DNA of 64,000 bases from positions 128,001 to 192,000 of the IMG/VR virus record IMGVR_UViG_3300045971_000895. The stretch is one strand, 5' to 3'. A program made the position numbers and the translations under genes. The stretch comes from a virus. Positions 14,699-63,820 of the stretch are shown here, piece after piece; position 1 is the first letter of the stretch; each line of letters starts with the position of its first letter. The notes beneath the pieces are model-generated. The model was not told the origin of the DNA. It saw nothing but the letters and a program-made list of their open reading frames with translations, and did no database searches.

Positions 14699-15820
14699 AT
14701 GAGCGCCACTGCCGTTCCAGCCAAGGTCCTCAACGACCTCTTCTTCGAGAAGATCGGGTCCACCGAGGGCAAGGACAAGATCGCCGAGTTCGGAGGCACC
14801 TACATCCGGGACCGCCTCCGTGAGGTCTCGTTCGCCCGCAAGATCATCCCGCCCACTCCCGTCCAGCGGAGCGAGCTCCAGCGCTCGGTGAACCACGACA
14901 CGCTCGTCAAGATCGTGGACATCGAGCCGAACTCGAAGGCCACCAGCCTGACCTTCCGCGGTCAGCCGACGGCTCGGTTCATCCGCGCCCCGCGCTTCGA
15001 GATCCCCTTCTTCACCATCTCCTCGGAGAAGTTCGAGAAGACGGAGCAGGAGCTCCTGGCGTACGAGATGCCCATCACCAAGATCATCGAGGAGAACTCG
15101 GTGAAGGACATCCAGGCGATCGAAGACCGCCAGTTCCTGATCTTCGTCGAGGCCTGCATCCAGGCGATGCAGCTCTCCGCCAACGGTGGCACCGCGACCT
15201 CCAACAAGGTCAACGGCGGCACCGCCGTGGTGTCGTCGGTCATCAAGGGCGCCGGCGCCGTCACCGGCAACGCGAACACCTTCACGGTGTACTCGCTCCA
15301 GAAGAACGACTTCGTCAAGCTGAAGCAGCTCCTGCACCGGCGCTTCCTCCGGTCGGAGCGGCTCCTGATGACGGAGCCGGACTACGACACCCTCTCGACC
15401 TGGACCATGACCGAGGTCTGGAACATCGCTGCCGAGACGGCGACCGAGGGCTGGAAGAGCAACACCGTGGTGGGCCTGAAGATCATCCGGACCATCAAGA
15501 CCAACATCCTGCGCGAGGGCAACGTGTACTGCTTCACGGCGCCCGAGTTCTTCGGCCGGTTCTACATCCTGAACCAGACGAAGTTCTACATCGACAAGAT
15601 CGCCAACCTCATCACCTGGCAGAGCTGGGAAGACATCGGGATGGGCTTCGGCAACGTCGCCGCGGTCACCAAGCTCGAGCTCTTCGGTGGTGGCGTGGTC
15701 CCCGGCGCCTCGCCGGACTCCGGCTACGCGGCCGTCCTGCCGATGGACGAGTCCGACCTGAACCCGGTCAACAACCTGGCCGACGCCGGGACGACCTACC
15801 CGCAGGTCGACCAGTTCTAA
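14699..15820 (+). CDS. major capsid protein
   Basis: 373 aa. Its size and position are right for a capsid protein. Followed by the strongest terminator in the window. No internal Cys-rich or low-complexity region. The assignment rests on context plus general HK97-like length and composition. Confidence 0.6.
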   Translation: MSATAVPAKVLNDLFFEKIGSTEGKDKIAEFGGTYIRDRLREVSFARKIIPPTPVQRSELQRSVNHDTLVKIVDIEPNSKATSLTFRGQPTARFIRAPRFEIPFFTISSEKFEKTEQELLAYEMPITKIIEENSVKDIQAIEDRQFLIFVEACIQAMQLSANGGTATSNKVNGGTAVVSSVIKGAGAVTGNANTFTVYSLQKNDFVKLKQLLHRRFLRSERLLMTEPDYDTLSTWTMTEVWNIAAETATEGWKSNTVVGLKIIRTIKTNILREGNVYCFTAPEFFGRFYILNQTKFYIDKIANLITWQSWEDIGMGFGNVAAVTKLELFGGGVVPGASPDSGYAAVLPMDESDLNPVNNLADAGTTYPQVDQF

Positions 15821-45597: not shown

Positions 45598-48500
45598 ATG
45601 GCCCTTCGCAGGTTCCTGTTCCAGAACCTCGGTGCGGGCTCTGGCTTCTTCGATCAGAACCAGGACTCGGACGAGGTACAGGTAGCGAGGGTCACCATCG
45701 TCGCCGGCGTAGGCGGCGTTGGTCTCGCTCTTGGCCTGACCGACATCTCTGGGGCTCGGGACATCAGCGCCCGGTTCGTCTCGTTCACCACCGGCGTCAC
45801 CGGTGGCGTGGCGATCGACGCCGGCGGCCTGCGCATCACCAACCTGGCGCTCGTTCCCACCGGGCCCAGCGAAGCCGTCTCGATGCAGTTCGTCGTGGAC
45901 GCCATCGCTGGGATGACCGGCGTTGGCGCCACAGGAGCCACAGGCCCTGCTGGCCAGCAGGGACCAACCGGTGCCGCGATCACCGGGGCCACTGGCCCGC
46001 AGGGCTCGCCCGGGCCCACAGGGCAGCAAGGTCTTCAGGGCGTCACTGGAGCAACTGGGCCTGTCGGTCCGCAAGGCCCTACCGGAGCGGCGATCACAGG
46101 GGTCGCTGGGCCGCAAGGGGCAACAGGTGTCACGGGAGCCCGAGGTGCTGACGGCGTCACTGGGGCGACGGGCCCTCAAGGGCCGCAGGGGGTCACGGGA
46201 TTCACCGGTCCCCTTGGTCCTCAAGGCGTCGATGGCGTCACTGGTCCGCAGGGTCCGACTGGAGCTGGCAGCTATCCCGGTGGCACGACGGGGCAGCTGC
46301 AATACTTCAACGCCGGGTCCTTCGGTGGCGCTACCAACATTACTTTTGAGAACGGGTCGCTTGTTCTCAAAGCAGATGGTGTCCACCCAATACTGGTCAT
46401 CAAGAACTCTTCTGGCGTAACCGTTGGTGGATGGGATGCCTCCGCAGGGCATCTATCCACCACCTTCCTAGATCCTGTTGCATCGCTGCGTACAGGCCAT
46501 GATGGCTACTTCGAGCAGGGAGGTTTCTTCTTCGACTCTTCCCTTACGGCGACTACCGGAATAGCTGCTGACGTTCTTGTTCTGGATACGGCAGCTGCGC
46601 TTAGAACCAAGAAGGCTACGACCGCTCTTGAGATCCCCTTGGGGGTTGCGGGGCAGTTCAACGCGCCTACTTGGATGCTCACTAGCGGTAAGGCTAGCGT
46701 TACTGCGGATACTGCCGCAGTGGCCATTGGTGACCGTATCGTGATGTCCCCCACGCTGATTGGGGCCGTCACTCCCGACAACACATGGGACCTTGCGAAG
46801 CCCATGCTTGGGTACGCGCTGTCGAGCAAGGCAGGAGGGTCCAGCGGGGCAATCACTATATGGCTGGCCCAGCAAGCGGGGATACCGTCTCTCAACTACT
46901 CCGGCACGCTTGTCTCAACAAACAACATCACCGCACCAACGTTCCTCGGCAACGTGACGGGTACCGGGCCATCTTCCCTGGGGCCTTTGAGTGTCACTGG
47001 AGCAGCTACCGCAGATCAGCCTACGTTTGGCCCCGAGCTGCTCAGCGCAACAGGCTGGACTTCGGTCGGATGGACTGGCGGGCCTTGGCCTACTGGGTTC
47101 GCACACACCGCCGGCAACACTTCCGTTCTCTCCAACACCTTGGCTGCCGTCATCGGCACCAAGTACCACATCACGTTTGCCGTTACGGGGCGTACGGTCG
47201 GAACGTTCGACTTGCAGTTCGGTGGCCAGACCATCCCACTGCTGTTCTCTTCCACCACGGTCAACCTCGGGGACGCGAACGGCTACGGCAGCGTGGACCC
47301 TACCGCCACGACGACCGGTGGCCTGACGATCACTCCGACAACGGACTTCAACGGGACGATCACCCTCTCGATCAAAGCCATCACGGCCGTCTCTACTCCT
47401 GTGTTCAAGCTCCTCTCCAGCACGTGGGGAGTCCAAGTAGAGGTCCGCGTCAACACGGTAGAGAGCGGCACTAACATCGCAAGCATGTTCATCGGCCAGG
47501 ACTCTGGCTCCTATGCGACTACCGGGTTCAACAATACGTTCCTCGGTAACGCTGCGGGCATGAACCTGACGTCAGGCCATGACAACTGCGGCCAAGGCAA
47601 CCTGGCCCTCAAGGCTCTCACGGTTGGGTTCGGCAACTCGGCCTTTGGGTCTTACGCTCTTCGGCAGATCATCGCGTCCAAGTACAACACGGCGATGGGC
47701 ACCGGGGCTTTGCGGTTGCTCACCTCGGGCTACGGCAACACGGGCGTTGGGTTCAGTGCCCTCTACTCCAACACCACGAGCATCTACAGCTCTGCCCTCG
47801 GCGTAAGTTCCGGACGCTACTTGGTTGATGGCATCACCGAGCTTACTGACTCTTCCTACTCGGTGTTCCTGGGCTACAAGTCGATGTCGTTTGCCCAGGC
47901 ACAGACCAACGAGATCGTCATCGGAGCCTTGGCTCTTGGCAACGGCTCCAACACGGCCACGCTCGGTAACGACAGCGTCACCAAGACCTACCTCAAGGGC
48001 GTGCTCACGAGCTTGGTTGTTGATAGCGCCGCAGCGGTGGCTCATGCCATCAACTCCCCAGCCTACAGCACGGCCGGCGCCAAGCTCCTCTCGATCCGCA
48101 ACAACGGCGTCGAGAAGTTCTACGTCGACAAAGATGGCAACGCCTACTCGAACGGAGTGCTGCTCGGTGCCACGGGCCCAGCTGGAGCGACAGGAGCTCA
48201 GGGCGTTACTGGAGCACAAGGGATCCAAGGTGTCACCGGTGCAACTGGTCCGACTGGTCCACAAGGAGCCACTGGGCCGTTGGGTGCCACTGGCGTTCAA
48301 GGCATCCAGGGAGTCACTGGGTCGACAGGCCCTGCCGGCGCGCAAGGTGCCACGGGTCTTCAAGGCATTCAGGGTGTCACGGGAGCGACCGGGCCTACGG
48401 GCCCGAAGGGCGACACCGGCGCTGCGATCACTGGAGCGCAGGGCGCAACTGGTGTGCAGGGTCCGCAGGGCATCACCGGCGTCACAGGACCGATGGGACC

Positions 48501-51500
48501 TGGGAGTCCCTCCGCTGGCCCTCAGGGCAGCCCAGGCGTCACTGGTGCGACGGGTGCTCAGGGTCCACAAGGAGTAACGGGGGCAACAGGTCCCACTGGG
48601 CCTCAGGGCCCAACTGGCGCCGCCATCACTGGCGCTCAGGGTCTTCCCGGTGTCACCGGTGCTACGGGCACAACCGGAGCGCGAGGCGCGACCGGTGTCG
48701 ATGGTGTCACCGGCGCCACAGGTGTTCGCGGTGCCACTGGTGTGGACGGTGTGACCGGCGCGACGGGTCCTACGGGGGCTCGAGGTGCGACAGGCATCGA
48801 CGGAGTCACCGGGGCTACTGGCCCTCGTGGTGCAACCGGAGTCGATGGAGTCACAGGAGTCACGGGACCAACCGGCGCACGAGGTGCGACTGGCGTTCAA
48901 GGAGTCACTGGGGCTACTGGTCCTCAAGGGGCCACAGGCGTCGACGGCGTTACCGGATCAACGGGACCTCGAGGTGCGACCGGAGTGACTGGTGCGACAG
49001 GTCCTGTCGGTCCTCAAGGGCCTACGGGAGCGGCCATCACCGGCGCCATCGGGCCGCAGGGCCCGACAGGTGTGACCGGTGCTCGCGGCGCTGACGGCGT
49101 CACTGGCGCAACAGGTCCGACAGGGCCACAGGGTGTGCAGGGTCCTACTGGTGCGGCCATCACAGGAGCGCAAGGAATCCCCGGCACGACCGGAGCTACT
49201 GGCACAACTGGTGCGAGAGGCGCGACTGGCGTCGACGGTGTCACTGGTGCCACGGGGCCGACCGGACCGGTCGGTGCTCAGGGCGTGACGGGAGCTACCG
49301 GCCCAACAGGCGCACGGGGAGCGACGGGTGTTGATGGTGTGACGGGCTCGACAGGTCCTCGTGGCGCCACCGGCGTTGACGGAGTGACCGGAGCAACAGG
49401 CCCCACTGGTGCACGCGGGGCGACAGGCGTCGATGGAGTCACTGGGGTCACAGGCCCAACCGGTGCCCGCGGTGCAACGGGTATCACCGGTGCCACTGGT
49501 CCCATCGGCCCGCAGGGTGTGACTGGTGCGACTGGCCCGGTTGGCCCACAGGGGGCGACGGGCGCCACTGGTCCTGTTGGTCCGCAAGGCCCCACTGGTG
49601 CGGCGATCACTGGGGCTCAAGGCATCCAAGGGCCAACGGGTGCTGCGATCACGGGTGCGGTTGGTCCGCAAGGTGTCACCGGCGCTACTGGTGTGACTGG
49701 TGCTCGAGGTGCTGATGGCGTGACTGGTGTCACCGGCCCCGCCGGCGCCAGGGGCGCGACAGGCGTTGATGGTGTCACCGGCGTTACAGGTCCGACCGGA
49801 GCGCAAGGTGCCACTGGGCCTGGTGCGAACCCTGGCGGCATCACCGGCCAGATCCAGTTCAACGAAGGCCCGACCTTCAACGGCGACGTCGGCCTCACCT
49901 ACGACAAGGTGTCGAAGGCTCTCTTCGTCAGCACCATTGACGCTCTCCCCAACAACCCTCTCAGCCTGTTTGGGAGTGCGACGGCCGGAGCGACGAGCGG
50001 CGCCATCATCCTCACGCAGACCCCGGGCCTTACGGTCCCCGGGTCCAGGCTCTTCAGCCTCCGCAACAACAGCGCTGAGAGGTTCTACGTAGACGAAAGC
50101 GGCAGAACCTACGCAGCCGGCATGGAGGTATTCAAAACCAACGACGTGGTGATGAACACCAACCCGTTCGGTGGACGCAAGCTCTACCTCAACAGCATCA
50201 ACAATGCGCTCTTCCGTGCCGAGAGCCGCTGGGCCGTTACTGGGGCTCGGTACCTGACGAGCGACGACAGCCTTCTGTCTGCCATCTCGCAGGTGGAGCT
50301 CGCCACGCTCTTCGATGGCAACTACGAGGCGGTACTCAACATCCCCGCCGGCCAGTACATCATCGTCAACATCAACTTCGCCACCGAGCTCGGCTCCGGT
50401 GGCGTCTACCCCGGGTACCCGTACGGCAACTTCCTCGTCTCGCACTACTACACTGACTACTCTGCCGGGGGCACGGTCAGCGCGTACTCAACCTACGTGC
50501 CCCATGGCGTTGGGTGGCACTCGCAGACGTTCTACGACTACCTCCGAGTCGGCACCACCAACCTGATCCTTCAGGCGCGGAACGACGTCTACGCGATCTC
50601 TCAGCTGGAGTTCAAGTTCTCGGCGCTGCCAGGCACTGCGGCCAAAATCACCCAGATTGACTGGAACCTCGATCGCCCTGGCGGTAACGAGATGCCGCTG
50701 TTGGATAAGTTCAAGGCCAACATCCTGTACTCTCACTTGTCGTTTGAGAGCGGGCTTTCGACGACTGCTGTGATTTCGGTTGCCGGTGAGGGCCGCTTTG
50801 CTGCGCTGTACGGCGTCACTGGGTCGTTGCCGCTGCACGGTCAGGCCGTAGACGGAAGCTCTGCTGTTGGGGTGAGCGTCAACAACACGACTGCGCTCAC
50901 CACGGCTGGTGCGAAGCTCTTGTCTGTCCGCAACAACTACGTCGAGAAGTTCTACGTCGACAAGGATGGCAACTTCGGAGGCCCGAACGGCGTCTTCCGC
51001 GTTACGGAGACGCGCACTCTCCCGATCACTGTCGGGGACTATGTTTCGCTCGGCTCCGTTCAGGTCCCAAGCGGCGCACACCAGCTGATTGTTCAGCTTA
51101 CCGTGTCGAGCTCCGGGTTCTCCGTCGCGAAGCTCTACTTCGTCACTGCTGCCTACGGCCAGACGGGGAACGTTTGGAAGACTGTCGATCCCGTCGACGA
51201 CACGGGCCCGTTCTCGAACGACTTCGCGTTGGAGGTCAACACAGTCAACGCCTCACTCTTCCTGCGGGTGCGCCGTACTTCGGGAGCCGTTGCTGGAGTC
51301 GTCACGGCAGTCATGACGATCGGCGACTCCAACGTCGCTAGTTGGTTTACCGACTCCTCGACCGGGGGCACTGGGTCGGTGGCGACGGGCTACTTCGCCG
51401 GCGTTGCCTCCAAGATCCTGCGGAGCGGTCTTGCGGACTCAGGTTCGGCGGTCGCTGCGCTCATCGACACCACGGCGACGTTCACCACAGCTGGTGCGAA

Positions 51501-54500
51501 GCTCCTCTCCATCAGGAACGCGGGCATCGAGAAGGCCTACGTCGACAAGGACGGCAACTACTGGTCAAACGGCCAACAGATCAGCGTCACTGGCCCCACT
51601 GGCCCTCAGGGCGCCACCGGGGTCAACGGCGTCACTGGAGCAACTGGCCCAACAGGGCCTCAAGGCATCCAAGGCGTCACGGGAGTCACCGGTCCAACTG
51701 GTGCGCGTGGTGCTACCGGAGTTGATGGCGTCACCGGAGTGACTGGGCCTACCGGTGCACGAGGCGCCACTGGTGTTGATGGTGTCACGGGAGCAACCGG
51801 GCCAACAGGTGCTCGCGGCGCAACTGGTGTCACCGGAGCAACTGGCCCTGTTGGGCCGCAAGGAGTGACGGGCGCTACTGGCCCCGTCGGACCGCAGGGA
51901 CCTACCGGGGCAGCCATCACTGGAGCACAGGGCATCCAAGGTCCTACCGGAGCCGCCATCACTGGTGCTGTCGGGCCCCAAGGGCCTACCGGCGTCACGG
52001 GTGCGCGCGGTGCGGATGGTGTGACCGGGGCCACTGGGCCGACAGGTCCGGTTGGCGCACAAGGTGCGACAGGGTGGACAGGCCCCACCGGGGCGAGGGG
52101 TGCCACCGGTGTGGACGGCGTCACCGGCGTCACGGGCCCGACTGGCGCCCGCGGCGCCACCGGGGTCACCGGTGCCCAAGGCATCCAGGGCATCCAAGGC
52201 GTCACCGGGTCGACCGGCCCGCAGGGCGGGCAGGGCCTCCAGGGCGTCACTGGGGCCACGGGACCGACCGGACCCCAGGGCGCGCAAGGGGTGACAGGCG
52301 CAACGGGCCCCACGGGCCCGCAGGGCGCTCAGGGAGTGACCGGCTGGACCGGCCCGACGGGCGCCAGGGGCGCCACGGGCGTGGACGGTGTCACAGGTGT
52401 GACCGGACCCACCGGGGCCCGTGGTGCGACCGGCGTGACGGGTGCGCAGGGCATCCAAGGGAACCCCGGTGTCACCGGTGCGACAGGTCCTCAAGGCGCT
52501 CAGGGACCGACTGGTGCAGCCATCACTGGGCCGCAGGGTGTCACAGGAGCCACAGGGCCTGTCGGTTCACAGGGCCCGACAGGAGCTCTCGGCCCCACGG
52601 GAGCAGGCAGCTTCCCTGGAGGCGCGAACACTCAGGTCCAGTTCAACAACTCCGGCGCGTTCGGTGGATCTGCGAGCCTGTTCTGGAACGGCACCTCTCT
52701 CGTCGTAGGCACCTCTGCGGCAGGCTCCAGCCAGCTCTCAAGCGCCAACGCCTTCCAAGAGTACTGGTCTACGGAAGTGTACCCTCGCGTGTGGCTCTCC
52801 CGCGATGCAGGGTCGAGCGGCGTGGCCGGTCTGGCGTTCGGCATTGGCTCCGTTGCCCCGGACAGCAAGATCCATCGAGCCACCAACGGTGCTGGCCTCG
52901 CCTTGATGGGCGGCAACGTCGGCATCGGCACGACGACCCCTGGGTACAAGCTCGATGTGGCGGGTAACGCCAACATCAGCAACGGATCTTACTACTACGC
53001 TGGAGGCTTGCCGCTTTCGGCCGGCGCTGGTGCAGAAAACTACCTGTTCACCAGAACCAACGGCCTGCTGATCCGCAACGCAGGTGAGACCGCGACCCTT
53101 GGTGTCATCGACAACAGCGGTAATGCGTCGTTCATAGGGACGCTCTCCACAGGAGGCAACGCAGTCATTCATGCCGGTAACATCGGCACCCAGAGCGTCG
53201 CTAACGCAAACACTGTCGACTCGGTCCATTCGTCATCGCTCCGTCGTCTGGACTCGGACGGCTTCTTCTCTACCGGGACCTACCCAGGCAACCTGAACGG
53301 CTCTGACTACCAGTACACGTTCCAGTCTGCGCCACAGTCGATGATCGGGGATGCCTTCGCCTGGAACCCTCCCACGTCCTACGAGATATGGAATGGGTCT
53401 GCGTGGGTGTCCGGTGGCGCCGTACCAGTCGAGGTGTTCCGGGGAGACCCCGCCCAGAACTGGGGCAACGTATCCATCCCCTACGGGACGCAGAAGGTCC
53501 GCTTCACGTGGAACAACTTCGAGTACTTCTACTGGAACGCTCTCCAGATGGCCCACTCCACCAATGGGCACACCTTTGTCGTGAAGGTGCAGCAGAGCGA
53601 CGCAGCGGGAACGACGTTCACTGACACGGTCACCTCGGCCGCCATCGGCTCTTGGCCCGGGTATACGATCCTCCCTCACACGGGCGTTTCGCACCCCTCC
53701 AACACACTTCACGCTCGGATCGAGATCACCCCGACGTGGAATGGTACCTACCCTTCCAACACCATCGGCATCGGGCACATCGGCCTGCTGGGCGCGTATG
53801 GCCCGATGAGGAAGCTCTACACTTGGGACGCAGCTCGAAACATCTATCTCCAATCAAGCCTTGTCATCGACCCCACCGGCACCAGCGGCATCTACATCAA
53901 CTCCGCTAGCATCCGGCGGTCAGGGAACTCGTACCTCGATATCTCTGCCCCAGACGCTGGAGGACGCCTTAGACTTCGTGGCGCTTCAGGCGTTGGCATA
54001 TACAACGGCACAAACGACTACGATGTAATCCACGCGGGCAACATCGCGTCGCAGACCGTCGCCAGTGCCACCAACGTGACGTCAGTCGCTGACACTACGA
54101 CGACCAGTGGATTCTTACTCTTCCACCCCGGGAGCGGGACCTACCAGCCCAGACTGAGCGCGGCGCTATACTACGACGCTACTACTGGGTCTCTGTTCTC
54201 TACGAAGTTCTTCGGGAACGCTTCCGGGCTTACGGGTTCGGCGGGCAGTCTAACTGCCGGCGCGACCACGAATGTAACCGCTGGTGGGTCCGTCACCACT
54301 ACCACCATAAGCGCCCTGGTCGCGGGTGGAGCCTTAGACCCGTACGGCGCAGTCGCCATCGCGGCACCCAACGACGCTACCAGCCACTCCTACATGTCGT
54401 TCACTAGGAACGCGCAGGTAGGTATTGGGTTTGGTATCACGAGCTCAAATGAGTACTGGGTTGGGCCAGCCACGGCGGGCTTCGCCGGGGTGATGAGTGG

Positions 54501-55209
54501 TACGCCCTGGCTGCGTCTGAACGGCACTACTGCCCAGATCAACGGCAATAACATCATTCACGCCGGAAACATCGCCTCTCAGACCGCGGGTACCGCTACC
54601 AACGCCGTCAACGTTGGGGTCACCGACGACACGACGACCAACGCTACTCACTACATAACGTTCGTGAACACGGCCTCGGGCAACCGTGCGATCGAGGTCA
54701 GCAGCAGCAAGCTGACGTACAACCCGTCGACCGGTGGTCTCACCACCGCCGGCAACATCACCGGCAGCGACATCTATGCCATCCGTGCGAGCAATACGGC
54801 TTCAGGCGTCATCTACTTCGGCAACAGCGGCGCCCAGTACCTCTTCTACAACGGTGCTGGCGCATACAGCCTGACAAGCGGAACTCTGACCGTTGGTGGC
54901 ATCGTCTACGCCACCGACTTCTCGGCATCTTCCGACTACAGGCTGAAGGACAACATCGCCACCATCCCCAACGCGCTGCGCCGTGTTCTTGGGATGCGCG
55001 GAGTGAACTTCACACGCGCTGACGACGAGAGTAACCGTTTGCACATGGGCGTCATCGCGCAAGAGATGGAAGAGATCGCACCCGAGGTCGTCAGCACCGA
55101 CGAGCATGGTATGAAGTCCGTCAGCTACACAGGGCTGGTGGGCATCCTGATCGAAGCGGTCAAGGAACTTCAAACCAAGGTCGAGGCGCTCCAAGCGCAG
55201 AAGGTGTGA
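45598..55209 (+). CDS. giant collagen-like tail fibre (3203 aa) with C-terminal peptidase S74 intramolecular-chaperone domain
   Basis: Three Gly-X-Y segments (about 110, 550 and 340 aa) separated by beta-rich modules. The C-terminus '[55 protein letters not shown]...[17 protein letters not shown]' matches the auto-cleaving chaperone domain of endosialidase-type fibres. Confidence 0.82.
48170..49830 (+). repeat. collagen-like GXY coding repeat (9-nt periodicity, 'GgtGcgACnGGn' units)
   Basis: Hundreds of near-identical '[13 protein letters not shown]' triplets. Shorter copies at 45920..46270 and 51590..52610. Confidence 0.85.
51590..52610 (+). repeat. collagen-like GXY coding repeat (third segment)
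   Basis: Same unit as above. Prone to recombination and length variation. Confidence 0.85.
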
Positions 55210-55210
55210 C

Positions 55211-56338
55211 ATGAGCGGCAAGCGCGAGTTCCACATGGACTTGAACTTGACCAACCAGTGCAACCTTCGCTGCTCCTACTGCGTTGAGGCTGGGCTGTTC
55301 ACCTCCAAGACCTGCGAGGAGATGCTCCCTCGCTTCTACGCTTGGATCGACCGGTTCATCGGCTCCCAGTACTTCAAGGAGCGCTACGACGAGCTCCACA
55401 TCGCACTGTGGGGCGGAGAGCCGACGCTCGAGTGGCGAACCATCATCGAGTTGGTGCGGCGCTACCTCGGAGACAACCGGGTCGCGTTCTTCCTGTACAC
55501 GAACGGCTACAACCACCCCAAGGGTCTTCAAGACCTTCTGGTGGACGCCACCAACAAGCACCGAGAGCAGCCCGACAAGTACCCAGCCTTCCCCATCCAG
55601 ATCTCGTACGACGGCATGCCCCTACAAGACATGTTCCGCAAGACGGTCGGAGGCAAGCCGTCTTCGGAGCGCGTCATCGAGACCATCCGGTGGGCGCAGG
55701 CCAAGGGATTGGACTTCAGCCTCAAGGCCACGATCACCGTGGCGTCATTGAAGCACCTCTACGCAGCCTGGCATGACATCAACATCCTTGGCCGAGGCGA
55801 GCTCACTTACTTCCCCACACTCGACTACTACAACGCGGTGATCAGCGACGATACGGCTGTCCTCGACACCAGCATCGAGGAGATGAAGACCTGCATGAAG
55901 ATGATCGCCGCCGACACGCTCAGGGCTCGAGCGGCAGGGAAGCAGGTGGCGCACTTCAGGTGGTTCGACTCTGCGAAGGCCAGCTGCTCGGCGGGACAGA
56001 ACCTGTTCAGCGTGGACCTCGATGGTGTGGTGTACGCCTGTCACACCGCCCCCTACTCCGAGAAGAAGGCCGACCATGTCGTTGGGGCTCTGGAGGACGA
56101 CTTCTCGATCTTCGACGTATCTGCTGAGAAGCATCGCGGCCTCCGTCCGCACCAGTGCTCTGGCTGCGAGGCGGTCTTCTGCGTGGTGTGCAGCGTGTCG
56201 AAGTATCGGATGTCGGACAAGGACAACTACCTCGACCGGTGGATGGACTACACCAACGACGATGAGTCCTGCCGCATCTACCGAGAGATGGGCAAAGTCA
56301 CTCGTGCGTTCCTTCAGCTCAAGGAGGAGATCAAGTGA
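55211..56338 (+). CDS. radical SAM enzyme with C-terminal SPASM/twitch-like Cys cluster (peptide/protein-modifying maturase)
   Basis: 'CNLRCSYC' is CxxxCxxC 18 residues from the N-terminus. The C-terminal cluster is 'YACH...QCSGCEAVFCVVCSV...ESC'. The start is 2 nt after the fibre stop. Confidence 0.8.
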   Translation: MSGKREFHMDLNLTNQCNLRCSYCVEAGLFTSKTCEEMLPRFYAWIDRFIGSQYFKERYDELHIALWGGEPTLEWRTIIELVRRYLGDNRVAFFLYTNGYNHPKGLQDLLVDATNKHREQPDKYPAFPIQISYDGMPLQDMFRKTVGGKPSSERVIETIRWAQAKGLDFSLKATITVASLKHLYAAWHDINILGRGELTYFPTLDYYNAVISDDTAVLDTSIEEMKTCMKMIAADTLRARAAGKQVAHFRWFDSAKASCSAGQNLFSVDLDGVVYACHTAPYSEKKADHVVGALEDDFSIFDVSAEKHRGLRPHQCSGCEAVFCVVCSVSKYRMSDKDNYLDRWMDYTNDDESCRIYREMGKVTRAFLQLKEEIK

Positions 56339-58773: not shown

Positions 58774-58867
58774 TCGAGCCTCCTTTCAGAGGTTGAGTTC
58801 TTACCTTACGGTGAGTGATGGTGAGTGCACAGATTGCAGTTGCGTACCATGTGCGTGGTACTTGAAG

Positions 58868-59262
58868 TGGACCTGGAGGGAGTCGAACCCTCGTCCGGAA
58901 AGCCTTGCTTCAAGGCACTACGAGCGTAGCCCTGTAGACCTGGGCAGGTTGCAGCTGTTGCATCGACCTCTGTCCGCGGCGCCTCCCTCGATGCCAGGAG
59001 AGTGGACCCATTTCCTTCACATCCCACAACCGCGGTGTCCCTCGTGTGGTTGCGCCTATCCAGCTACCCGAGAGGCACTCTCGCTGGTAGACGGCTGAGC
59101 TCTCGTGGTCTCAGCAACATGGTGCCGCTAGGCTGCTGCGGCGGCCATGTTGATCATGGGCTCGTTGGCACATGAACGTGGTCTGCTTGGTAACGGGGCC
59201 TGCTGACCAACCCCGGCTCGCTCCTTGATCTGGGTACCCTCCGTCGAAACCGGTTCAGGCCC
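58868..59262 (-). ncRNA. ssrA: tmRNA (ssrA), one-piece, about 395 nt
   Basis: On the minus strand the 5' end is 'GGGCCTGAACCGGTTTCGACGGAGGG' (compare E. coli 'GGGGCUGAUUCUGGAUUCGACGGG'). The 3' end is 'GGACGAGGGTTCGACTCCCTCCAGGTCCA'. Acceptor stem GGGCCUG/CAGGUCC has a G3-U wobble. Candidate tag ORF 'GCCAACGAGCCC...GCCTAG' encodes ANEPMINMAAAAA*. Confidence 0.65.
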
Positions 59263-61163: not shown

Positions 61164-62132
61164 GTGCAACAAGCAGTGAACTTCACCGCTACATCCTTAT
61201 GCCCAAATCGCACTCGTACTTGCTACCACATCCACCGCACTCTTCATGCTCCCCACCGCAGACTCAGGAGAGTAGCGTGGAGGTACGTGACCACCTACCC
61301 AGTACCTCCAGGCACTTCCAGGCGCGTTCCGCGTTACGTGACGTTGCTTCTTTGTTGGTTGGGGGTCGCGATATGTGGAGGGCTGGATGGTTGGCTCGAC
61401 ATGGCCTTCCACTACAACTTCACACCAACACCGATCTACCTAATTCCCATCTCGGTGGCAGCGTGGCTTGGAGGAATCCCTCTTGGCCTTCTCGTCGCTG
61501 CTCCTGCCTTGGCACTCGAGGTGTGGTTCAGTGTCGACGCAGTCAAGGTGCACCACTCCAACGGTGTAGTCATCACAGAGGCACTCTCGCTACTCATCGC
61601 CGCAGAGATGCTGACGGGTGTGCTCATCATCTCGAGACTGCGCGGCTACGTTCGCAAGTACCACCACTTCGCTTCGGTGGACGAGCTCACGGAGTGCCTC
61701 AACGCCAGAGCATTCAAGCACGAGTGTGAGATCTCCATCGAGCGCCTGAAGCGCCACAGCAACACGCACCTCTCAGTGATGTACATCGACGTGGATGACT
61801 TCAAGCTCGTGAACGACGAGAAGGGTCACAAGCATGGCGATGAAGCGCTCAAGATACTCGGCCAAGCACTTCGAGACTCGGTGCGCGTGGTGGATGTGGT
61901 TGGAAGAGTGGGAGGAGATGAGTTCGCCATTCTCTTGCCAGAGGCTAGTGAGAGCGATCTCCCATGTATCATCGAGCGCATCAAAGCTGCACTCGTGCAG
62001 ATGCAGTTCCCCACCACCATCAGCATCGGCTACGTGACCTACCCGCCCGGTGTGCCGAAGGATCTCGACGAGGTCTTCCACACGGCCGACCGGCGCATGT
62101 ACGAAGCCAAGAAGGCACGCAAGAAGAGGTAA
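61164..62132 (+). CDS. membrane-anchored GGDEF diguanylate cyclase
   Basis: 'RVGGDEFAILLP' active-site motif and 'MYIDVDDFKLVNDEKGHKHGD'. Hydrophobic N-terminal segments. The true start is probably downstream, around 61338..61400. A hairpin follows at 62137..62160. Confidence 0.68.
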   Translation: MQQAVNFTATSLCPNRTRTCYHIHRTLHAPHRRLRRVAWRYVTTYPVPPGTSRRVPRYVTLLLCWLGVAICGGLDGWLDMAFHYNFTPTPIYLIPISVAAWLGGIPLGLLVAAPALALEVWFSVDAVKVHHSNGVVITEALSLLIAAEMLTGVLIISRLRGYVRKYHHFASVDELTECLNARAFKHECEISIERLKRHSNTHLSVMYIDVDDFKLVNDEKGHKHGDEALKILGQALRDSVRVVDVVGRVGGDEFAILLPEASESDLPCIIERIKAALVQMQFPTTISIGYVTYPPGVPKDLDEVFHTADRRMYEAKKARKKR

Positions 62133-62163: not shown

Positions 62164-62454
62164 CTACTCCTCAGCTCTGGCCTCGAAGATCCTGGCCGCC
62201 CTGAGTGCTCCGTTGGCGTAGTGCTTCAGCTGCTCGTCGGTGACGCCATCACCATCGCCAAAGCACGGGATGAGCTCGGCCTTGTCGACTTCCTTCTTGA
62301 ACAACTCCCAGGCCTTCTCGGCCACGCGCCGCTTGAAGGCCTCCTCCTTGGTGGCCTTGTCGGGCTCGAGCAACGACCGCAGCGAGCGGTTGATGCCCTT
62401 CACGGCTTCGGCCATCTCCTGACCGAGCCTCGTCTGAATCCATTCAGCTGGCAT
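62164..62454 (-). CDS. hypothetical protein (96 aa)
   Basis: Start 'MPAEWIQTRLGQEM' with AGAGGAAG RBS. Confidence 0.45.
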   Translation of the reverse strand: MPAEWIQTRLGQEMAEAVKGINRSLRSLLEPDKATKEEAFKRRVAEKAWELFKKEVDKAELIPCFGDGDGVTDEQLKHYANGALRAARIFEARAEE

Positions 62455-62677
62455 TGTTCTTCCTCTTCTGCCGCCTGGCTCGTTCATAGCCATCAAGCCA
62501 GCCAGCTTCATGAGCGTCTGTGCCAGCCTGCTGCACTGGGCACGCCGGTGGGGGTGGCGCGATGCATTCGAGATTGCCAGCGCACCACCCACTCTTCCAC
62601 CCCGCTGCGAAGCTCTTGCAGTAGGGCGCATCGAACGGGTTCTGCGCGAGCAGCAAGGCCACGATGAGCGGAGTCAT
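62444..62677 (-). CDS. small secreted Cys-containing protein (77 aa)
   Basis: Signal-like 'MTPLIVALLLAQNPF' followed by four Cys. Its stop overlaps the downstream start. Confidence 0.35.
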   Translation of the reverse strand: MTPLIVALLLAQNPFDAPYCKSFAAGWKSGWCAGNLECIAPPPPACPVQQAGTDAHEAGWLDGYERARRQKRKNNAS

Positions 62678-63025
62678 CTAGGCCTCCGGAGACAGGATGA
62701 AGAGCGTCTCAGCAGGCTCCTTCGACCACTCGAACCTGCTCATCTGCTCCTCGTACTCGAGCACAGCGATCTCCACCGGGAAGCTCCTCAGCCGCATGGC
62801 GCAGAAGAACGCCATGCGGATGGTGTGCTCGTCGATGTGGCCGTCGTGGACGAGCTGCCGCACGCACTCCCGCTTGGCCTCGAGCGGAACGCTGTCGGCC
62901 TTGAGGTCCCCAATCCTGAAGAGCCCGAGGAGACCACCGCAGAGGCGGAACTTCGCCTTCACGACGTCGGGCAGCTTCTCGAGCTGGGTGATGAACTTCT
63001 TGTGCGCCTCTTCGATGAGGTCCAT
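62678..63025 (-). CDS. hypothetical protein (115 aa)
   Basis: Start 'MDLIEEAHKKFITQLEKL'. Confidence 0.45.
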   Translation of the reverse strand: MDLIEEAHKKFITQLEKLPDVVKAKFRLCGGLLGLFRIGDLKADSVPLEAKRECVRQLVHDGHIDEHTIRMAFFCAMRLRSFPVEIAVLEYEEQMSRFEWSKEPAETLFILSPEA

Positions 63026-63026
63026 C

Positions 63027-63419
63027 TCAGCCTGCCTTTCTGGCGTGCTCGTACGTGCCCCACAGCGAGATGGGCTTGGCGAGCGGGGTGAAGCCCTTCT
63101 CGAGCAGCTCCATGCTGTACTTCGGAGGCACGAGAGGGGCGCAGGAGATGGTGATGTGCGCCACTCCTTTGTCCATTCGCAAGAGCTGCTCCTTGATGTG
63201 GACGGCCTGCCCCTTGTCATCAGAGGCCACACCATCCACCGTCAAGAGCACCAGCTGCCCCAGCTTCGGAGCGAACTGCTGCACCACCATGTCGTGGGGC
63301 TTGAACATGACCGTGAGGTGCTCAGCGAACACCTTCGGGTGGATGGCCGGCACAGCAGCCAAGAGCGCCTTCTTGGAGACGTCGCTGAGGTAGATGGCGA
63401 TGAACGTGGGGAGAGCCAT
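63027..63419 (-). CDS. 2H phosphoesterase superfamily protein (LigT/Acb1-like), ~130 aa
   Basis: Two H-x-T/S-x motifs, 'EHLTVMF' and 'AHITISC', at the spacing expected for the 2H fold. Internal Met start coupled to the upstream gene by a TGATG overlap. Confidence 0.55.
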   Translation of the reverse strand: MALPTFIAIYLSDVSKKALLAAVPAIHPKVFAEHLTVMFKPHDMVVQQFAPKLGQLVLLTVDGVASDDKGQAVHIKEQLLRMDKGVAHITISCAPLVPPKYSMELLEKGFTPLAKPISLWGTYEHARKAG

Positions 63420-63661
63420 CACATCCCCATCCTGTCGGGGATGCGCAGGTGCTTGATCTCCTCGAGGAGGTCTTCGCCCTTGTCCTGGCGCTCGAGGAGG
63501 GAGAGGACGGTGTCCCGCATGCCCAGCTGCGAGGACACCTGCACCGCGATGAGGCGGAGCTTCGAGTCGCTGCTCTTGAGGTGGCAGCAGCACGGCGGAC
63601 CGTGCCAGAGCTCTCCCGGGAGGCGCAAGCTGCACTTGGGGCAGAACGCGATGCCCACCAT
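63419..63661 (-). CDS. zinc-ribbon protein (80 aa)
   Basis: 'CPKCSLRLPGELWHGPPCCCH'. Confidence 0.4.
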   Translation of the reverse strand: MVGIAFCPKCSLRLPGELWHGPPCCCHLKSSDSKLRLIAVQVSSQLGMRDTVLSLLERQDKGEDLLEEIKHLRIPDRMGM

Positions 63662-63820
63662 CTAGGCCTCCTGCTTCATCTTCTCGTCGAGGTACTTCTC
63701 CTTCGCCGCGGGGCTGAGGGAGTCGAAGTACTTGGCCTCACGGGCCTCCACCTTCTTGGCCTTCTTGCGCTTGGCGGTGCGGAGCATCGTCTTCAGTGAG
63801 AACGCGTTGCGGGTCTTCAT
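63662..63820 (-). CDS. small basic protein (52 aa)
   Basis: 'MKTRNAFSLKTMLRTAKRKKAKKVEAREAKYF...' with AGGGAGG RBS. Confidence 0.4.
   Translation of the reverse strand: MKTRNAFSLKTMLRTAKRKKAKKVEAREAKYFDSLSPAAKEKYLDEKMKQEA

Follow-up and report, generated by a model that had tools for sequence, protein, structure and literature searches.

Within a 64-kb window of viral DNA (64,000 nucleotides of the IMG/VR record IMGVR_UViG_3300045971_000895), a minus-strand gene encodes a genuine 2H phosphoesterase of 130 residues. With moderate confidence, we predict that this protein is a minimal, stand-alone 2H enzyme of the CNPase/tRNA-ligase cyclic phosphodiesterase (CPD) type, which acts as an RNA 2',3'-cyclic phosphodiesterase in the end-healing of RNA or tRNA. 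The source is a large, uncultivated tailed phage with a GC content of 63%, and the identical protein was found in metagenomes, on contigs as long as 198 kb. The gene and its two HxT motifs are located as follows:

63027..63419, minus strand: 2H gene, ATG at 63419, stop codon ending at 63027, 130 aa
63312..63320, minus strand: first motif, H34-L-T36 (EHLTV, residues 33-37), codons CAC CTC ACG, predicted strand 34-39
63150..63158, minus strand: second motif, H88-I-T90, followed by I91-S92 (AHITI, residues 87-91), codons CAC ATC ACC, predicted strand 88-93

A preliminary description of the window had proposed a 2H phosphoesterase because of EHLTV and AHITI segments in a protein of approximately 130 residues. 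Both segments are present at residues 33–37 and 87–91, and the proposal was right, as the conserved HxT pair lies on predicted strands of a 2H fold. The motif pair by itself is weak because the protein contains six His residues, and the chance that two of them are followed by Thr or Ser at position +2 is estimated at approximately 1 in 8. Conservation and structure validate the assignment instead. Across 110 aligned short relatives, H34 and T90 do not vary (110/110 each), and T36 and H88 are each retained in 109 sequences. Position 39 is Phe or Tyr in 104 sequences, S92 is found in 107, and F6 (Tyr or Phe), H27, D67, Q71, Y101, and S102 are also conserved. The GC contents of the gene at the first, second, and third codon positions are 0.61, 0.37, and 0.87, respectively. 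Comparison with a 74%-identical homologue gave a ratio of nonsynonymous to synonymous substitution rates (dN/dS) of 0.38, which indicates purifying selection. Therefore, from the family-wide conservation and the dN/dS value, the gene and its motifs are real.

The two catalytic His residues are separated by 54 residues in the window protein, compared with 69 in Acb1 (H44/H113; PMC9117128) and 85 in the CPD of Candida Trl1 (H682/H767; PMC7145591). The motifs had been described as correctly spaced; the two HxT motifs hold, but their spacing is only loosely right. The shorter spacing therefore identifies the window protein as a trimmed-down version of the 2H fold. F39, five residues after the first His, is in register with Phe48 of ThpR and His687 of Trl1, and the counterparts by register of F6, on strand 1, are ThpR Phe8 and Trl1 Tyr647. 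In the solved structures, these ThpR and Trl1 residues pack against the terminal nucleoside (PMC7145591). Arg130 of ThpR, taken here as the fifth residue after the second His, is essential, and the Trl1 CPD likewise lacks this Arg (PMC7145591). The corresponding residue of the window protein is Cys93 (Cys in 76/110 relatives), and the protein thus has no counterpart of ThpR Arg130.

The window protein alone gave nothing usable against Pfam, PHROGs, or the PDB sequences (ASA5, E = 0.023; phrog_36523, E = 0.16), and a tblastn search of 50,697 phage records with it returned zero matches. Its close homologues are few (four, all metagenomic). A profile search covering 1.84 billion representatives of 50%-identity clusters found 1474 relatives at E ≤ 1e-3 and 539 at E ≤ 1e-10. 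Of the 110 short relatives, 83 (best E = 4.3e-10) matched the Pfam family PF08302 (fungal tRNA ligase phosphodiesterase domain, tRNA_lig_CPD), as did 27 of 38 fused relatives. The window protein is thus placed in the PF08302-related clade transitively, by way of the family profile, because it is the relatives that match. In PHROGs, 78 of the 110 relatives matched phrog_36523, which is annotated as "unknown function", and no NCBIfam family matched any of the 110. Loci for the family were retrieved with a 12-sequence alignment. Some family members are chromosomal in bacterial metagenome-assembled genomes, where they have no obvious partners. One phage sub-branch (L006, 10001..10603; L014, 5596..6378; relatives P0004, P0005, and P0168) carries an N-terminal extension of approximately 75–120 residues, which looks like a coiled coil and has no Pfam match.

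An AlphaFold model based on the 110-sequence alignment had a mean predicted local distance difference test score (pLDDT) of 93.5 and a predicted template modeling score (pTM) of 0.85. A first model from four sequences was poor (pLDDT 67) and was discarded. The topology of the model is beta-alpha-beta-alpha-beta-beta / beta-alpha-beta, and each HxT motif is located inside a predicted strand. The model was compared with known structures; each row below holds four unlabelled values, in the order in which they were tabulated:

Mouse CNPase catalytic domain (2xmi_A): 14.3; 1.8; 124/130; 21%
Acb1 (7t27): 7.4; 3.5; 100; 12%
Plant Appr>p CPDase (1fsi): 7.3; 4.1; 109; 14%
Acb1 (9q2y): 7.1; 3.3; 97; 11%
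LigT/ThpR-type enzymes (1vgj, 5h7f, 4qak, 2d4g): 5.7-7.0; 3.6-3.9; 103-107; 13-21%

The nearest structural neighbor of the model is CNPase and not another 2H clade. In a Foldseek search of the PDB, each of the best 50 matches was to CNPase or to RICH, its homologue in fish. In a comparison of the family profile with the PDB, the second HxT stretch aligned with the region of the second HxT motif of CNPase. Among the structures of the viral library BFVD, the best named matches include Trl1-like RNA ligases of giant viruses, and Acb1 appears only from rank 9. The top Foldseek matches in BFVD were Env polyproteins of walleye dermal sarcoma virus (E = 8e-6) and walleye epidermal hyperplasia virus 1 (E = 1e-4). 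These model-based matches suggest that the Env polyproteins of walleye retroviruses contain a CNPase-like domain.

The proteins to which the 2H domain is fused point to RNA repair. Longer, fused proteins account for 38 of the 150 best relatives, and the additional domains of these proteins are modules of RNA repair. HAD_SAK_1 ("HAD domain in Swiss Army Knife RNA repair proteins") occurs in eight of the 38, and the P-loop kinase domains AAA_33 and KTI12 occur in four each. RNA_lig_T4_1, the PolyA_pol head (a poly(A)/CCA-type nucleotidyltransferase), and R3H were found in two each, and the MJ1316 cyclic-end recognition domain was found in one. The CCA-type nucleotidyltransferase is fused to the 2H domain in L020 (1550 aa) and is adjacent to it in L023.

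Phage neighborhoods of stand-alone 2H genes contain similar components. In five loci (L006, L011, L014, L018, and L028), an AAA_33 kinase resembling polynucleotide kinase (PNK), with a GxGKS P-loop and an SADD motif, is located 1.5–3.5 kb from the 2H gene. The cultured Aphanizomenon phage CL131 encodes a 2H homologue (gp125) 1.7 kb from gp120, which is annotated as "polynucleotide kinase/phosphatase". On a 47-kb IMG/VR phage contig (L018, 1900..11700), the 2H homologue and the AAA_33 kinase are located within an array of at least 22 tRNA genes, which lies on the strand opposite to both. The preliminary description had offered an RNA-repair enzyme as its second option. This option is the better one because the family has no significant similarity to Acb1 and is found in RNA-repair fusions and phage neighborhoods.

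For the 2H protein, we infer a substrate, a regiochemistry of the product, and a role in infection. By analogy with CNPase, the Trl1 CPD, and ThpR, a terminal 2',3'-cyclic phosphate would be held at its phosphate by H34 and H88, aided by T36 and T90, and opened by metal-independent acid-base catalysis. The terminal nucleoside would be stacked against F6 and F39. The product expected for the CNPase/CPD clade is a 3'-OH with a 2'-phosphate. During infection, the enzyme would heal the ends of tRNA, and possibly of mRNA or rRNA, that are made by metal-independent RNases of the host, such as anticodon nucleases, HEPN enzymes, and toxin RNases. Opening of the cyclic phosphate would be the first step of a heal-and-seal pathway; a kinase, a ligase or CCA-adding enzyme, and a remover of the 2'-phosphate would be supplied elsewhere by the phage genome of roughly 198 kb or by the host. 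An earlier prediction from comparative genomics already held that jumbo-phage 2H enzymes prepare RNA ends for ligases by clearing 2',3'-cyclic phosphates (PMC7824862), and the assignment therefore opens no new question.

However, several points weigh against this assignment. The window protein itself has no match to PF08302, even at E ≤ 10. It has Lys84 where 62 of the 110 relatives have Asn, and Met103 where 95 have Asn. These replacements are common to a sub-branch consisting of the window protein, P0002, P0003, and P0171 (K84 and M, G, or A at position 103). In the Trl1 CPD, Asn763 and Asn782 (positions −4 and +15 relative to the second catalytic His) coordinate water (PMC7145591); K84 and M103 are equated with these residues by sequence register only. 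To judge from these positions, the sub-branch may have a shifted specificity. Furthermore, a 2'-phosphate product needs more processing before a normal tRNA is restored, and no biochemistry was found for any member of the short family.

The setting of the gene also counts on this side. The linkage to kinases is loose, extending over kilobases rather than being operonic, and when viewed from the kinase side, a 2H gene is present in only 3 of 80 loci. The 56 ORFs (open reading frames) of the window were surveyed against Pfam, which identified no kinase, RNA ligase, HAD_SAK phosphatase, CCA-type nucleotidyltransferase, or Tpt1. Searches of all window ORFs by phmmer with the fusion-partner segments and four phage kinases revealed no partner, and no repair partner is present in 9.4 kb beyond the window either. 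The partner search thus covered the 64-kb window and 9.4 kb of the phage contig of roughly 198 kb. The 153-kb contig of the 74%-identical relative is absent from the best 80 of 230 IMG/VR matches to PNK-like kinases, which is suggestive only.

A solo eraser shares the chemistry of an RNA end-healing phosphodiesterase, and sequence analysis therefore cannot separate the two. Such an enzyme would hydrolyze small 2',3'-cyclic phosphates, or the cyclic-phosphate ends of tRNA halves, and would thereby blunt a stress or defense response of the host. Its candidate small-molecule substrates are ADP-ribose 1'',2''-cyclic phosphate and the 2',3'-cyclic nucleoside monophosphates (2',3'-cNMPs) that host RNases produce. 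We regard this function as possible but unlikely. The fused domains handle polynucleotides (ligase, PNK-type kinase, CCA-type nucleotidyltransferase, R3H, and MJ1316) and are not small-molecule enzymes, and this analysis identified neither a sensor of such a signal nor a pathway for it. A related proposal concerns the entire short CNPase-like branch (phrog_36523), which might be a counter-defense eraser of a 2',3'-cyclic-phosphate signal or an independent 2H lineage that cleaves cyclic oligonucleotides. The signals could be tRNA halves sensed by RtcR-type regulators, 2',3'-cNMPs, or intermediates of the ring-nuclease type. This proposal appears doubtful to us, and more so than the solo eraser.

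The preliminary description had favored an Acb1-like nuclease directed against the cyclic oligonucleotide-based antiphage signaling system (CBASS). Such an immune-evasion nuclease would cleave 3'-5'-linked 3'3'-cyclic GMP-AMP, cA3, or cA4 of CBASS or of type III CRISPR (clustered regularly interspaced short palindromic repeats) systems. The window protein does resemble Acb1 (T4 gp57B; 7t27, 9q2y) in its 2H fold, its HxT/HxT tetrad, its small size, and its nature as a phage accessory gene product (PMC9117128). However, the family profile reached the Acb1 entry 9q2g of the PDB only at E = 1.6 and only in the region of the first motif, and in its fold the model resembles CNPase far more closely than Acb1. 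In Acb1 of phage FBB1, a C-terminal lid (residues 145–152, with W147) closes over the cyclic dinucleotide (PMC9117128). The last strand of the model ends at residue 125 and is followed by just five poorly conserved residues with no Trp; therefore, the window protein has no counterpart of this lid. No CBASS-related linkage was seen for any relative. With these results and the RNA-repair context, the anti-CBASS function is unsupported and, in our judgment, very improbable. The preliminary description had named a fold closer to tRNA-ligase-type enzymes, together with a lack of cyclic-nucleotide hydrolysis, as evidence against its own proposal; on the structural side, the fold is indeed closer to the tRNA-ligase type. 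The anti-Pycsar activity that had been suggested in addition is also unsupported; the anti-Pycsar enzyme Apyc1 belongs to a separate, metal-dependent family (PMC9117128) and has no bearing on the window protein. An enzyme of the LigT/ThpR type or the 2'-5' "RNA ligase" type, or a catalytically dead structural relic, can be dismissed as most unlikely, because the similarity to CNPase is much higher and Cys93 occupies the position expected for ThpR Arg130 in the former case, and because the full catalytic tetrad is conserved under purifying selection in the latter.

The predicted RNA 2',3'-cyclic phosphodiesterase differs from known systems mainly in its reduction. The catalytic domain of CNPase (PDB 2xmi, 2ydd) and of goldfish RICH has approximately 215 residues, compared with 130 in the window protein, which also lacks their PNK-like N-terminal domain and membrane anchor and has the short spacing of 54. 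Moreover, it comes from a phage and not from a vertebrate, and its activity is predicted. Compared with the CPD of fungal and plant Trl1/AtRNL (PF08302; Candida 6u00), the window protein stands alone and is unfused to a kinase and a ligase; K84 and M103 replace two Asn residues, the spacing is 54 instead of 85, and no Tpt1 was found in the window. The Swiss Army Knife RNA-repair polyproteins of bacteria and phages (Burroughs and Aravind 2016, as cited in PMC7824862) contain the same 2H domain family, accompanied there by HAD_SAK_1, a CCA-type nucleotidyltransferase, and a kinase (L020). Unlike in these polyproteins, the 2H domain of the window is a solo protein of 130 residues with no such partner in the 64 kb. 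The T4 enzymes Pnkp and Rnl1, which counteract PrrC, provide a functional parallel, in that healing of the 2',3'-cyclic ends of host-cleaved tRNA is proposed (PMC3592404, PMC7824862). However, the fold and chemistry of Pnkp are unrelated: its DxDxT acylphosphatase takes the phosphate off entirely, whereas a 2'-phosphate should remain after the action of a CNPase-type enzyme, and neither a ligase nor a kinase was found in the window.

If the assignment is true, the window protein would be about the smallest CNPase-type cyclic phosphodiesterase known. It would also name a large family (at least 1474 clusters, corresponding to phrog_36523) that is filed under unknown function in phage databases. 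It would add to the picture of large phages that carry kits sustaining translation under attack by host RNases; the kit here would consist of the cyclic-phosphate-opening enzyme and a transfer-messenger RNA (tmRNA). Furthermore, a compact, metal-independent enzyme of this type could double as a reagent for the healing of RNA ends.

The tmRNA gene is located as follows:

58865..59262, minus strand: phage tmRNA gene, Rfam RF00023, 100 bits, full length

It lies 3.8 kb downstream of the 2H gene on the same strand and was missed by ARAGORN. The gene is kept in the 74%-identical relative (L004, 17085..17453, plus strand, 105 bits). The acceptor stem shows covariation at positions 4–6 between the two phages and retains the G3.U70 pair. 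Plausible tag peptides can be read as ANEPMINMAAAAA and ANEPMFAQQLAAA. The 3' end is CCACUU, and hence the CCA is not encoded. The tmRNA and the 2H enzyme together suggest a theme of translation rescue, the link between them being proximity alone (3.8 kb).

The 2H gene is part of an array of small minus-strand genes, with a larger ORF on the opposite strand:

63419..63661, minus strand: upstream Cys-rich ORF, 80 aa, its stop codon and the 2H start codon overlapping by one base
62678..63025, minus strand: downstream ORF, 115 aa, separated from the 2H gene by 1 nt
62444..62677, minus strand: downstream ORF, 77 aa, 0 nt from the 115-aa ORF
62164..62454, minus strand: downstream ORF, 96 aa, overlapping the 77-aa ORF by 11 nt
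62697..63665, plus strand: antisense ORF, 322 aa, third-position GC content (GC3) 0.81, spanning the 2H gene and its neighbors

The tightly coupled mini-genes that had been noted around the 2H gene are thus confirmed by the one-base start/stop overlap upstream and by the spacings of 1 nt and 0 nt and the 11-nt overlap downstream. The 80-aa ORF has zero homologues in the other fetched loci, L004 included, and the three downstream ORFs have homologues in L004 only. Searches of Pfam and PHROGs with the small flanking ORFs gave no match. The preliminary description had taken this layout as typical of an anti-defense locus; ORFs of such narrow distribution speak neither for nor against that idea. 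A scan of 61–64 kb for promoters and terminators detected no signal above chance. The 322-aa antisense ORF was rejected as a gene; it is considered a high-GC artefact because the 2H gene on the minus strand has homologues and is under purifying selection.

The small-gene array is approached from the other side by a gene for a diguanylate cyclase:

61401..62132, plus strand: GGDEF diguanylate cyclase, Pfam E = 1.2e-37, intact GGDEF motif and RxxD I-site

This gene converges on the array and is kept in the loci L004 and L005. Its product has a hydrophobic N-terminal region and is membrane-anchored. A functional link between the GGDEF and 2H proteins was considered and rejected, because the GGDEF gene is kept in a close relative only and no GGDEF domain occurs among the fusions of the 2H family.

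Elsewhere in the window, the large terminase has 29% identity to that of Salmonella phage Arash, and the Pfam survey of the 56 ORFs identified endonuclease VII and RNase HII. Other Pfam matches were AAA_5 and VWA_CoxE (a MoxR-like pair), PT-HINT, Peptidase_C92, and DUF5661. ARAGORN called a 92-nt tRNA-Arg(tct) at 15243..15334 on the minus strand, which is probably a false positive. The Rfam tRNA model scored below its gathering threshold at this site, and the site lies within a plus-strand ORF (14699..15820) with a GC3 of 0.96. An ORF of 3203 aa (45598..55209, plus strand), which corresponds to collagen-repeat and Peptidase_S74 proteins in related contigs, probably encodes a giant tail fiber, and it is directly followed by a gene for a radical SAM protein (55211..56338, plus strand).
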